Positions 7,207 through 38,442 of a stretch of 64,000 bases of DNA are shown here, piece after piece (positions within the stretch are counted from its first letter, which is position 1; the number at the start of each line of letters is the position of its first letter). The translations under genes and the position numbers were made by a program. The notes beneath the pieces were generated by a model that saw only the letters and a program-made list of their open reading frames with translations, had not been told where the DNA came from and made no database searches. This stretch comes from Nanobdellota archaeon (GTDB lineage: Archaea > Nanobdellota > Nanobdellia > Pacearchaeales > GW2011-AR1). The stretch lies in assembly GCA_038044925.1 (NCBI GenBank), contig JBBSZC010000004.1:11166-75165 (forward strand). The letters are read 5' to 3'.

Positions 7207-8304
7207 TTACTCCAAAAATTCAATCCCTAACTCTTCTTCAATCTCTTTGTGCCTTCTATCCTCAAGACTATCTCCTTGTCCGACGATCTGAGAGCTCTTT
7301 ACGCCTGTGACAATCAATAAAACCCTGATAGATTTTTCCATATCTTCTGAAATCTGCGCACCCCAAATCATTTTTGCATCAGGAGATAATTTATTTCCAA
7401 CTGTTTCAATTATTGATTTGCATTCATCTAAGCTCATATCAGATCCTCCAATTATATTTATTAGAGCGCCTGTTGCATCTGAAATATCCACATCCAGCAA
7501 AGGATTTTGAATTGCCTTTTCAACAGCTTCTGTTGCCCTATTTTGAGAATCTGATTCTCCCATGCCTATTAAAGAAACTCCTCCATCTATCATTATTGCT
7601 TTTATGTCTGCAAAATCCAGATTTACAAGACCTGATTTTGTTACCAATTCTGTTGTACCTTTTACGGCATTTGTTAGAATTTCGTCTGCAATTTTAAATG
7701 CAGTATGTAACGGCAGTTCAGGAGCTAATTCCAGCAGTTTATCATTAGGAATTACTATTAATGTATCAACACTATCCTGCATTCTCTCTAAACCATTCAT
7801 TGCATTTTCGATTCTTTTTCTTCCTTCTATTGAAAATGGAAGCGTAACAATTCCAATTACTAGAGCTCCTTGTTTTTTTGCTATTTCAGCGATTATTGGA
7901 GCAGCGCCTGTTCCTGTTCCCCCCCCTAATCCGCAGGTAATAAATATCATGTCGCTTCCTAAAAGTTTTTTCTTTATTTCTGACTCTGATTCTTTTGCTG
8001 CTTCTGCCCCTATCTTTGGATTGCTTCCTGCTCCTAAACCCTGAGTTAATTCTCTTCCAATTAAAATTTTTTGGTCTGCATTAGCGTATAATAGATCCTG
8101 GGCATCTGTGTTCACTGCTATAAGTTCCCCTCCTTTAATCCCTATTTCCCTCATTCTGGAAAGAGAATTATTCCCTCCGCCTCCAACACCTATAACTTTT
8201 ATTTTTGCGTTTTGTTTTTTTAGTAATTCTTCTAATTCCTTATCTATTTCACTGACATTTGAAGAAATATCTATTCTGTGTTCATCCCTTTGTACAACTG
8301 CCAT
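7207..8304 (-). CDS. ftsZ: cell division GTPase FtsZ
   Basis: IGVGGGGNN, tubulin signature GGGTGTGAAPIIAEIAK. Confidence 0.9.
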   Translation of the reverse strand: MAVVQRDEHRIDISSNVSEIDKELEELLKKQNAKIKVIGVGGGGNNSLSRMREIGIKGGELIAVNTDAQDLLYANADQKILIGRELTQGLGAGSNPKIGAEAAKESESEIKKKLLGSDMIFITCGLGGGTGTGAAPIIAEIAKKQGALVIGIVTLPFSIEGRKRIENAMNGLERMQDSVDTLIVIPNDKLLELAPELPLHTAFKIADEILTNAVKGTTELVTKSGLVNLDFADIKAIMIDGGVSLIGMGESDSQNRATEAVEKAIQNPLLDVDISDATGALINIIGGSDMSLDECKSIIETVGNKLSPDAKMIWGAQISEDMEKSIRVLLIVTGVKSSQIVGQGDSLEDRRHKEIEEELGIEFLE

Positions 8305-35655: not shown

Positions 35656-36378
35656 ATGAATTTTATAAAAAAGGTATTTGACAAGAAAGTTGATGAAATT
35701 GTACATATACAATTTAAAAAATTTAGCAGGGGGAAATTTATAGACAAGGCTGTTATAAAAGCAAAAAGAGATGGCAAAGGAAACTTTACTATAATTACGA
35801 CTTATGAGTTTGCTAATGATCTCGTTAGAGATGTTGCAGAAAAATTAGGAAATATTAAAACTAATGTTAAAGGGGTTCTTGTTTCCACAAATGATTTGAC
35901 AGGAGAGCTGGATTTTAATAGCAAGAAGCAATTCATAGGGGTTAAGCAATATAGAATAGATAAAGAAATGACTGGAAATGAAATAATTGGCATTTTAAAC
36001 AAATTTCCAAAAGCTTTTTTTGCCTTGAGTTTTAATGTTGATTCTGGAGGAAATTCAACTGAATTAAAAATAAAAGAAAAGGCTCCAAAGTCTGCTAAAC
36101 CCAGCAATAAGACAGATGAGAAACCTAATCCTGATTTTTGTAAACTTAAAACATCGGATAAAGAACTTGCAGAGAGTTTTGTTTTTGAAAAAATGGATTT
36201 TAAATTAGCAGAGATAAGCCATGATTTTATAATTAAAGAGATAGTAATTCCTGAAGAGCTGAAAAAAGAGAATGACTTTGCAAAGATAAGAGAGTTTTCA
36301 AGAAGAAGGGGGGTTGTGATAAGGAAAGCGATTATTGATGGCAGGGAAATAAGAAGAGAGATTGATTTTGAGGTGTGA
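35656..36378 (+). CDS. hypothetical protein
   Basis: 240-aa ORF convergent with the RT gene. Confidence 0.3.
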   Translation: MNFIKKVFDKKVDEIVHIQFKKFSRGKFIDKAVIKAKRDGKGNFTIITTYEFANDLVRDVAEKLGNIKTNVKGVLVSTNDLTGELDFNSKKQFIGVKQYRIDKEMTGNEIIGILNKFPKAFFALSFNVDSGGNSTELKIKEKAPKSAKPSNKTDEKPNPDFCKLKTSDKELAESFVFEKMDFKLAEISHDFIIKEIVIPEELKKENDFAKIREFSRRRGVVIRKAIIDGREIRREIDFEV

Positions 36379-36403: not shown

Positions 36404-37455
36404 TTAAAGGGAGCTAGGGATGGGTGCATAAATAGCTTTTACAACATTCCTCCTTAACTTAAAGCTATTAGCCCACTTTGCATAGGCGTTCCAACCATTA
36501 AAACTTTCTAATAGTTTTTCCTTACTTAATTCTCCGCTTTTGTGTTGTCTTATTCTGAATATTATATTTCTTAAATTTTTCTTTCTTAACAAGTTATAGT
36601 GATAGAATTTTCTAAACCCTACAAAATCAATTCCTCTTGATAGAGGAATTATTTTAGATTTCTGAGAATGTAGTTCTAGCTTTAATTTTTCTTTCAATAA
36701 TCTGTTTATTTGCTCTTTCCACACTTCTAGTTGTTCCTTAGAATTATGAAGAATAACAAAATCATCTACATATCTAATATAATATCTAGCCCGTAACTTA
36801 TTCTTAACAAACCAATCCAATTCGTGAAGATAAACGTTGGCGAAGAATTGGGAGGTTAGATTGCCGAGAGGCATTCCTTTCTCGCAAAAACTCGTTCGCC
36901 CCCCCCCCCGAACGAGTTCGGGCTGTTATTAAGAATCTGACCAATCAACCAAATAACTTTTTTATCTTTAATCTTTCTGCTTAAAATTTCTATTAAAATC
37001 TTGTAATTAACTTCTTTAAAATAATGCTTTATGTCTGCTTTCAAACAAAAGGAAATTCTGCTATTGTTTTTAGTAACTTTTCTCTGAAATAATTCAAATC
37101 TTTTAAGTGCAAATAAATTCCCCTTTCCTACTCTGTTCGCACAAGAATCATAAATAAAAGATTTGTCAAAAAGTGGCTCAATTATTCTAACAACTGCATG
37201 ATGAACTATTCTATCGGGAAAGGCAGACTTTGAAATTTTGCGGGTTTTTGGGTCTCTTAACACAAAGTTCTTTAGAGGTTCTGGCTTATATGTCTGATTT
37301 TTTAGCTTATCTGACAAGCTGATTAGATTTTTAAATAAATTAGCTTCAAATTCAATAACATAGTTCTTTTTAGTCTTGCCTTTTCTTGCTTTTCTCCAAG
37401 CAAGAATTAAGTTAGACAAATTATAAATCTGCTCATATAAGTTATTAGTTTCCAT
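36404..37455 (-). CDS. DGR-type reverse transcriptase, split into two ORFs (37455-36856 and 36874-36404) by a frameshift inside a G11 homopolymer
   Basis: N-terminal LILAWRKARKGK; motif 3 ADIKHYFKEV; motif 4 KGMPLGNLTSQFFANVYLHELD; motif 5 YVDDFVI; adding one G (12 instead of 11) gives continuous ...NSFGGGGRTSFCEKGMPLGN... Confidence 0.8.
36891..36917. repeat. C11 (G11 on the coding strand) homopolymer flanked by a 10-bp inverted repeat, AACTCGTTCG-C(n)-CGAACGAGTT, inside the RT gene
   Basis: 11 consecutive C at 36899-36909 in a roughly 29% GC genome; flanking arms perfectly complementary. Confidence 0.85.
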
Positions 37456-37484: not shown

Positions 37485-37576
37485 TATTCCAGACGCATAA
37501 CCATACTCGACATCAGCATGGTAGTTGCCATTGACATTCAACCTGTCACCATTCCAGTTCGAATTCACCGCGGATA
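37485..37576 (-). other. DGR template repeat (TR)
   Basis: About 89-nt repeat of the VR; at all 13 mismatches TR has A on the coding strand; TR codons AAT/AAC dominate. Confidence 0.85.
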
Positions 37577-37746: not shown

Positions 37747-38442
37747 TTACGAAGCGCCTTCGGCGCTTTTTGGCAATACCCCAGACGCAAAACCATACCC
37801 GACATCAGCATGGTAGTAGCCATGGACATACAACCTGACACCAAGCCAGTCCGAATCCACCGCGGTATATTTTTTCAAATCTCTATTTTGAGAGTCTAAA
37901 GCACCAACATAAGGTGCTTTTCTGCTTATTTTTTCAGCAACTCTTGCTACAACATCTTCAGCGAAATCTTTATCTGTAACTTGTCCAATTATATAAGAAT
38001 TTGCAACTAAATCTGAAACTGACTGGTTTCCTGTCTTAAATCCATATTTAACTAATCTTACTGCCTTATCTCCATCTTTCATTCTTTTTATTAAACTTGC
38101 CCTATCTGTTGGCATAGTTCCATCAATATTATCATAAAGAATAACATCTTCTTTTCCCCATAAATTCTCAGTAGTCGTCAATAGCCATTGGTTTTTTACT
38201 CTGGAAACTATATCCTTGCATTGTTTATTATCTGGATTGCTTAATGCAAAATCTATTAAAGAAAATGTCTGGGCAGTTGTAGGTCTTAGTAATTTTCCTT
38301 TTGTAATTGCACCCATAACTTTTTGGTGAGTTCCTGGTCCTTCAAGAGGATAAGCACTTGTTAAAATCCCATTTCCGTGCTTATAATCCATTTCGGTTCT
38401 AGCTATTCTTATTCTTCCACCATTTAGTTCTTTAGTTATCAT
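37747..38442 (-). CDS. DGR target (variable) protein with C-terminal VR; N-terminal domain of unknown family
   Basis: 231-aa ORF; the last roughly 40 aa are encoded by the VR; no obvious signal peptide. Confidence 0.75.
   Translation of the reverse strand: MITKELNGGRIRIARTEMDYKHGNGILTSAYPLEGPGTHQKVMGAITKGKLLRPTTAQTFSLIDFALSNPDNKQCKDIVSRVKNQWLLTTTENLWGKEDVILYDNIDGTMPTDRASLIKRMKDGDKAVRLVKYGFKTGNQSVSDLVANSYIIGQVTDKDFAEDVVARVAEKISRKAPYVGALDSQNRDLKKYTAVDSDWLGVRLYVHGYYHADVGYGFASGVLPKSAEGAS
37750..37773 (-). promoter_or_regulatory. GC-rich stem-loop (7-bp stem AAGCGCC/GGCGCTT, 4-nt loop) 8 nt downstream of the VR
   Basis: Perfect GC-rich hairpin in an AT-rich context, at the position of the homing-enhancing hairpin of characterised DGRs. 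Confidence 0.5.
37777..37868 (-). other. DGR variable repeat (VR) encoding the C-terminus of the target protein
   Basis: See TR; VR reads ...TAVDSDWLGVRLYVHGYYHADVGYGFASGV versus TR SAVNSNWNGDRLNVNGNYHADVEYGYASGI. Confidence 0.85.

Follow-up and report, generated by a model that had tools for sequence, protein, structure and literature searches.

Why does the reverse transcriptase (RT) gene of a diversity-generating retroelement (DGR), intact in its other parts, break off inside a run of eleven guanines? We asked this of a locus in a Nanobdellota archaeon (assembly GCA_038044925.1, contig JBBSZC010000004.1), lying in a stretch of 64,000 nucleotides that we refer to as the window. An original prediction, made from the letters of this stretch, had described the break and offered two explanations for it, a phase-variable switch and a homopolymer miscall. 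Our analysis establishes that the G11 tract is a genuine repeat that breaks an otherwise intact DGR RT, and suggests that it is a slipped-strand switch in its OFF position. The features on which the argument turns are the following.

36899..36909, minus strand: G11 homopolymer (C11 on the plus strand), which puts RT motif 4 out of frame and is cured by adding 1 nt or removing 2.
36889..36898, in plus-strand reading: inverted-repeat arm AACTCGTTCG, which on the coding strand lies 3' of the tract and reads CGAACGAGTT.
36909..36918, in plus-strand reading: inverted-repeat arm CGAACGAGTT, which on the coding strand lies 5' of the tract, reads AACTCGTTCG and encodes N-S-F.
36884..36898, minus strand: conserved flank on the 3' side of the tract, reading CGAACGAGTTTTTGC in coding orientation, which recurs after the G run in many orthologues.
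36856..37455, minus strand: RT N-terminal open reading frame (ORF) of 199 amino acids (aa) with motifs 1-3 and the out-of-frame end GGGGERVFARKECLSAI followed by a stop codon; the protein P0389 is the same ORF.
36404..36874, minus strand: RT C-terminal ORF of 156 aa, whose first residue is the Met of GMPLGNLTSQ (motif 4), with YVDD and the thumb region.

The frame breaks between RT motifs 3 and 4, inside the G run, into two ORFs (37455..36856 and 36874..36404), just as first described, and the rest of the RT is intact. Adding one G, which the original prediction had expected to make the ORF continuous, fuses the two halves into a 350-aa protein (...NSFGGGGRTSFCEKGMPLGNLTSQ...) with motif 4 in frame and a Pfam RVT_1 match at 6.8e-20. 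More than 100 full-length archaeal RTs match the restored RT at 64-74% identity along 97-100% of its length, and the Met of GMPLGNLTSQ that opens the C-terminal ORF is invariant in 32 aligned relatives. The run had also been called highly atypical for an AT-rich genome, and base composition agrees: the GC content of the window is 30.2%, and about 1.5e-5 C runs of 11 or more are expected in it. One other G/C run of 8 or more occurs in the 64 kb, a G8 (C8 on the plus strand, 7919-7926) that stays in frame within ftsZ and there codes for part of the GGGTGTG tubulin signature.

Is the length of such a tract variable? We compared tract lengths on assembly consensus sequences and found them to differ between near-identical strains. 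L253 carries G11 and reads in frame (ON; a 342-aa RT), L254 carries G10 and reads out of frame (OFF), and the other aligned bases are identical at 921/921 positions. The lineage of this pair has a third member, P0424, which reads as G12; with P0143, P0011 and P0424 at G10, G11 and G12, that one background holds OFF, ON and OFF. Other near-identical groups also combine the two states (P0422 ON vs P0239 and P0423 OFF; P0404 ON vs P0177 and P0403 OFF; P0413 ON vs P0203 and P0412 OFF), and in P0414 the tract is interrupted. One cluster with (GA)n in place of G holds four repeat numbers and one in-frame member. Length is polymorphic in 6 of the 10 clusters drawn at 90% identity, with all three frames present inside single clusters, and several of the length variants are borne by 2-7 contigs of different sources. 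The sister species, whose RT N half is 89% identical to that of the window, has G11 in L248 vs G10 in L256 and L257, at 99.2% nucleotide identity; its G11 is found in two or three contigs, from the European Nucleotide Archive (ENA) and the Joint Genome Institute (JGI). Eight contigs, drawn from three or more samples, carry one and the same (GA)10 OFF allele, which makes short-read error unlikely there.

We therefore favour slipped-strand phase variation, at a probability of roughly 0.6, with the window copy OFF and one G from ON. Under this reading, slipped-strand mispairing at replication would add or remove G residues in a disordered, length-tolerant loop, and the RT would toggle between an in-frame state (ON; G12 or G9 here) and two out-of-frame states (OFF). 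The window copy would be in an OFF state that needs one more G, with full-length RT made at most in trace amounts and with no mutagenic retrohoming into the variable repeat (VR) of the DGR target gene at present in the bulk population; slippage by one base would turn the RT back on. The switch put forward in the original prediction thus gains orthologous tracts and mixed lengths, both at the level of assemblies, while its reversibility within a lineage is the part that we infer. Selection may in turn keep the switch as a population-level gate on targeted hypermutation.

The comparison of orthologues that the original prediction had called for extends the tract well beyond this lineage. At E ≤1e-10 the restored RT has at least 7,360 homologues, and we aligned the 120 best full-length ones. 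The stretch from motif 3 to GMPLGN varies in length by 0-40 residues across this alignment and very often contains GG, GGG or GGGG. At the DNA level, pure runs of G6-G12 sit at the same site in L118, L099, L164, L253, L022, L033, L082, L091, L132 and others, and wherever the DNA of an orthologous Gly tract was read, it consists of 6-12 uninterrupted G. The same loop carries other repeats in some relatives, C8 in L162 and L163 and (GA)10 in L250-252. G, C and GA repeats encode no stop codon in any frame. In an AlphaFold model residues 180-193 are coil with a predicted local distance difference test (pLDDT) score below 50, and the loop thus appears to be disordered and permissive.

Repeats are not confined to this loop. 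A second site follows motif 5 (SKEQLxxW-GGG), with G10 in L255 (2716-2725) and G18 in L070 (1261-1278). The L255 run leads at once to a stop, followed by about 95 intact codons in another frame; at the protein level P0154, P0237, P0175 and P0130 end at this second site and P0194 reads through it in frame. G10 runs also lie upstream of the RT start codon, 2 nt before it in L154 (895-904) and about 20 nt before it in L071 (2977-2986), a possible third position for repeat-based modulation of RT expression. Overall, G/C runs of 8 or more occur at 0.093 per kb in RT genes vs 0.012 per kb in their flanks, an eight-fold difference.

Two other accounts of the run were considered and rejected. A poly-Gly linker under selection at the protein level is ruled out, because the tracts are always pure G although GGG is little used as a codon (16% of those for Gly in the long ORFs of the window) and because the flanking DNA is read in three frames. 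A dispersed mobile GC-rich palindromic element does not fit either: the G11 motif with its arms is present in a single copy in the 64-kb window, and exact-motif scans of viral contigs gave only chance matches in GC-rich phage DNA.

How common are the out-of-frame alleles? A search with the N half returned 1,340 short proteins and one with the C half 1,855, each at E ≤1e-20. Among the N-half matches listed are about 119 clusters at 64-99% identity, nearly all ORFs of 186-255 aa that stop soon after GGG(G), RERERE or PPPP, many of them on contigs 20-420 kb long. They end in GMPLGNLT read in one or the other wrong frame, as ...ECLLEI and a stop (the type seen in the window) or as ...NASRQSNL.... 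Among the 120 best C-half matches the GMPLGN motif was found in 112, of which 97 have its Met as their very first residue and are otherwise intact; 111 of the 120 retain YxDD. Setting in-frame against out-of-frame genes gives the following counts, approximate in that they are built from two separate best-120 match lists.

At least three Gly at the site: 25 in frame, 58 out of frame.
RE repeats at the site: 1 in frame, 19 out of frame.
Poly-Pro at the site: 3 in frame, 6 out of frame.

Judged from these sequences, OFF alleles are clearly the majority of tract-bearing genes. The outcome depends on how genes are collected. With the restored full-length RT as query, the best 120 matches are all full length, and none of the 245 loci gathered by full-length alignment (the 80 best loci per collection, E 1e-153 to 1e-99) is out of frame; this is an ascertainment artefact, since the ranking of best loci appears to favour intact genes. 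A search of 50%-identity representatives is too coarse for ON:OFF ratios.

Could the tract of the window nonetheless be misread? In that case the true length would be G12 (or G9) in this window only, with no break in the RT. Short-read chemistry and assemblers have difficulty with long G runs, and L253 and L254, one G apart, may represent related data that were assembled twice. In two metagenome-assembled genomes (MAGs; L027 3559-3568, L009 1236-1245) an N10 scaffold gap coincides with the RT G tract or lies no more than 25 nt from it, and assemblers evidently break at these tracts. (A C50 run at the very start of contig L128, positions 1-50, is unrelated to the RT tract and is probably a poly-G artefact of two-colour chemistry.) Against a miscall, the same G11 is present in a MAG contig (CAYIHG010000001.1, GCA_964363295.1) and in a single-sample assembly (L249, with 6x coverage according to its contig name), and a third contig, that of P0390, has one base different and the same out-of-frame tail, hence a G11-type tract as judged at the protein level only. 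The repeated finding of G11 in the sister species, in contigs of both ENA and JGI, points the same way, as does the fact that about 70% of tract-bearing relatives are out of frame, those with (GA)n and the widely shared (GA)10 allele included. We also tested 167 homopolymers in the window, and the RT run alone was judged to break a gene; the other flagged runs sit at or near boundaries of neighbouring or overlapping ORFs, and the one doubtful ORF pair begins with a complete ArsR-type helix-turn-helix domain (Pfam). Because G11 recurs in two or three assemblies and no other homopolymer-broken gene is evident, the miscall that the original prediction had kept as its alternative is very unlikely.

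We next turn to the sequence around the tract. The original prediction had placed it inside a perfect 10-bp inverted repeat, and the arms AACTCGTTCG and CGAACGAGTT are indeed complementary over 10 bp without a mismatch, the right arm sharing the last C of the run so that a 10-nt loop is left. The right arm together with 36919-36922 can also form an alternative palindrome, CCCGAAC..GTTCGGG. The predicted hairpin has a stem of 10-11 bp and a G10 loop, and as a DNA fold it is moderately unusual (z = -2.8). The 10-bp arms are also present in L165, which has a TGGGGG loop and reads in frame, and in L248, with one uncompensated mismatch in the left arm; most tract-bearing orthologues are without the inverted repeat. 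Judged by this distribution, the inverted repeat is a sub-lineage feature that is dispensable for the phenomenon. Where present, the arms may favour hairpin extrusion, slippage or loop inversion, and in the window they could promote slippage or inversion of the loop. The C8 alleles fit loop inversion: in L162 (930-937) and L163 (786-793) the C8 stands between recognisably the same arms (AACTC[A/G]TTCG ... GAACG..GAGTT), as would be expected if template switching at the inverted repeat had flipped the hairpin loop. L163 additionally carries 45 nt of arm-like sequence, duplicated or inserted. A role as an intrinsic terminator or other RNA structure was examined, as a simple scan flags the hairpin with a T5 run; it is ruled out by a 101-nt RNA fold no better than that of shuffled sequences (z = -0.27), by the uncompensated mismatch in the sister species and by the lack of the repeat in most orthologues.

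More widely shared than the arms is the sequence that follows the run. CGAAC stands directly after the G run in 12-16 of 18 loci, often as the full CGAACGAGTTTTTGC, and nucleotide-level conservation of the flank CGAAC(GAGTTTTTGC) extends across RTs that share 55-90% aa identity (L082, L100, L248, L165, L009, L164). Depending on the orthologue the flank is read as RTSFC, ERVF or ANEF, with each of the three frames in use. Between the window and L248, about 48 nt around the tract differ at one base, whereas synonymous sites elsewhere are near saturation. A flank kept regardless of its reading frame suggests a constraint at the DNA or RNA level, and the G(n)CGAACGAGTTTTTGC flank could be a cis-acting nucleic-acid element of the DGR.

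Might the RT instead be functional with G11 as it stands? A small but constant share of full-length RT would then come from transcriptional slippage, or from -1 ribosomal frameshifting at the heptamer G GGG GGG. A -1 shift is exactly what the window requires, and Gly-tRNA can re-pair on its run. Out-of-frame tails that need this shift are about twice as frequent as the other tail (47 vs 21), and the tail GGGGERVFARK occurs in at least four lineages. G11 with the same flank is found at the DNA level in two species in which both RT halves are under strong purifying selection, and intact split genes are very numerous. Set against this, orthologues occupy all three phases, and members of a single 90% cluster can do so too, so that no one programmed shift fits. 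The run is itself the loop of the hairpin, which encloses it and does not lie 5-9 nt downstream as a frameshift-stimulating structure would. The (GA)n and second-site alleles are without a slippery heptamer, and the G10 strains of the sister species gather nonsense codons, which indicates that their phase is not rescued. We regard recoding as unlikely.

The position of the break raises another possibility, that the RT works in two pieces. The C-terminal ORF would be re-initiated at the Met of GMPLGN (M195; ATG at 36872-36874), and the phase of the tract would be selectively neutral. M195 is invariant in the aligned relatives among the DPANN archaea (named for Diapherotrites, Parvarchaeota, Aenigmarchaeota, Nanoarchaeota and Nanohaloarchaeota), whereas the distant GC-rich relatives that were checked have Leu (CTG), and the start of most of the best C-half matches at exactly this Met is what such a protein would give. 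The split is predicted to fall in a disordered loop. The stop codon of the N-terminal ORF (TAA within AAT-CTA-AC) lies 18 nt downstream of the ATG, a geometry compatible with termination and re-initiation, and an in-frame share of about 30% is close to the neutral expectation of one third. Such a protein would leave unexplained why G/C and GA repeats are enriched, and at several sites, in a genome of 30% GC. No conserved Met follows the breaks at the second site, the C half decays in G10 strains, and no Shine-Dalgarno-like spacing is evident by eye. We know of no split DGR RT, and we consider this reading quite improbable.

The remaining question is whether the window copy is switched off or dying. 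The repeat could be a mutational hazard with no role as a switch, kept for some other reason (as a DNA or RNA element, or by mutational bias), in which case the frameshift would be the first step of DGR loss and the window copy a young pseudogene. The sister species shows what such loss would look like: the two G10 strains have independent premature stops in the RT C half (W-Q to W-stop and PLSQG to PLS-stop-G), and in L256 there is additionally an F-to-S change within the invariant SQFFAN. Such decay after the frameshift means that the OFF phase can be truly non-functional and can lead to loss. The conservation of CGAAC(GAGTTTTTGC) irrespective of frame likewise hints at a nucleotide constraint unrelated to switching, and the failure to find an ON allele in the window's lineage or in its sister species also favours erosion. 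In the window, by contrast, the two halves are without other lesions, and against L248 dN/dS is 0.074 in the N half (dS 0.78) and 0.078 in the C half (dS 1.40). Low dN/dS and lesion-free halves imply purifying selection for most of the history of the gene, with a frameshift that is recent, reversible or bypassed. The intact N halves and C halves, which number more than 100 clusters, the ON and OFF alleles in near-identical backgrounds of several lineages, and the convergence of three repeat types on the same loop also speak against a mere hazard, which we consider unlikely.

Several observations nevertheless weigh against slipped-strand switching, beginning with the decay of the G10 strains and the approximate nature of the ON:OFF ratio. 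No in-frame allele was found in the lineage of the window or in its sister species, where all contigs are G11 or G10 and OFF; the closest full-length match to the RT of the window in the protein collection is 74% identical. The three contigs of the window's lineage all show the G11-type frame, and no length polymorphism is seen among them. L249 is 100% identical to the window over 3,325 nt, VR included: it probably shares reads with the MAG, and it gives no sign of ongoing VR diversification relative to the window. The L253/L254 pair may be the same or a related sample assembled twice, and could mix read-level noise with true heterogeneity. On a neighbour-joining tree, the ON and OFF states need 22 changes vs 24.9 after shuffling, a nearly random distribution that also fits neutral drift of phase; we give this test little weight because the presence of the tract is itself nearly random on the tree, which is therefore without resolution.

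The cassette around the RT comprises the following features.

37489..37573, minus strand: template repeat (TR), immediately upstream of the RT start.
37781..37865, minus strand: VR, whose mismatches to the TR fall at TR adenines in 10 of 10 cases.
37747..38442, minus strand: DGR target gene of 231 aa, without a Pfam match, with the VR at its 3' end, 34 nt from the stop codon.
37752..37768: GC-rich hairpin AAGCGCC-TTC-GGCGCTT, straddling the stop codon of the target gene just 3' of the VR.

The TR and VR are repeats of 85 nt, and the TR has 20 A, to which the mismatches are confined. The RT belongs to the DGR clade by its GMPLGNLTSQ and RYVDDF motifs, and the VR ends a target ORF close to the RT. 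As all ten TR/VR mismatches fall at template adenines, the element has been active. No Avd-like accessory gene, a frequent though not universal DGR component, is evident in the cassette and no ORF lies between VR and TR, as judged without a dedicated Avd profile search. On inspection, the G-tract element has no convincing likeness to the TR, the VR or the initiation of mutagenic homing (IMH) sequence.

Archaeal ribosomal protein genes adjoin the locus. A 240-aa ORF without a Pfam match (35656-36378, plus strand) is convergent to the RT. L161 is the window's own contig and L249 an identical assembly, so that the 240-aa gene called in each of them at this position is again the same ORF; nothing comparable adjoins the RT in L248 or L250. 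In the sister species (L248 317-1216) the DGR neighbourhood is unlike that of the window, with an IS240-family DDE transposase just upstream of the target gene and an acetyltransferase downstream.

How does this locus compare with known systems? The poly-G/C contingency loci of Campylobacter jejuni, Helicobacter, Neisseria and Haemophilus share with it an intragenic G/C run of about 8-13 nt in a genome of about 30% GC, lengths that differ in near-identical strains, shifts of frame, and OFF alleles that are otherwise intact. Here too a G11 lies in an ORF, relatives are polymorphic and differ in frame, and repeats are over-represented. The differences are that the host is a DPANN archaeon, that the gated gene would be a targeted-mutagenesis RT and not a surface or restriction-modification gene, that G, C or GA occupies the same loop according to lineage, that the window copy lies inside a 10-bp inverted repeat, and that switching is deduced from assemblies. 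With known DGRs, such as that of Bordetella phage BPP-1 (Brt/TR/VR) and those of other DPANN archaea, the element shares a GNLTSQ-type motif 4, YVDD, a TR beside the RT, a VR ending the target gene, adenine-only mismatches and a GC hairpin after the VR; here, in contrast, the RT ORF is interrupted by a simple-sequence repeat. Programmed frameshifting and transcriptional slippage (OrfAB of the insertion sequences IS1/IS3, retroviral gag-pol, Thermus dnaX) also place a catalytic part in another frame downstream of a slippery homopolymer. In this RT family, however, orthologues occur in three phases, no downstream structure stands at the canonical spacing, and G runs and GA repeats are not classical slippery motifs.

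Tandem repeats in mutL or mutS of some bacteria act as reversible mutator switches. They resemble the present case in that a hypermutable repeat stochastically toggles a capacity to generate mutations; they govern genome-wide mismatch repair, whereas the tract described here would govern site-directed A-to-N mutagenesis of one target gene. The regulation of DGRs is poorly understood, particularly in uncultured DPANN archaea and members of the candidate phyla radiation (CPR), where DGRs are most abundant. Full-text searches, and term searches inside DGR surveys, gave no description of DGR RTs with repeats, repeat-mediated interruption or phase variation. A survey has covered DGRs from DPANN and CPR organisms (PMC5758913), and general work on homopolymeric tracts as switches exists (PMC2831843).

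Could the phenomenon hold for DPANN archaea at large? With the odds a little short of even, we tentatively propose that DGRs of this group may be gated by hypermutable RT repeats, G(n), C(n) or (GA)n, in the same loop, at the second site or near the start codon, with targeted hypermutation stochastically ON or OFF within a population. If true, this would be a contingency locus controlling a diversity generator, and a clear case of repeat-mediated phase variation in DPANN archaea. By simple means, heritable and reversible, a variable-protein sequence that has proved successful could be frozen (OFF) while a minority of cells goes on exploring (ON). A substantial share of DPANN DGR RTs in public assemblies appears as two ORFs (1,340 N-half-like and 1,855 C-half-like proteins vs at least 7,360 homologues), and surveys that demand an intact RT would under-count such DGRs or call them dead.

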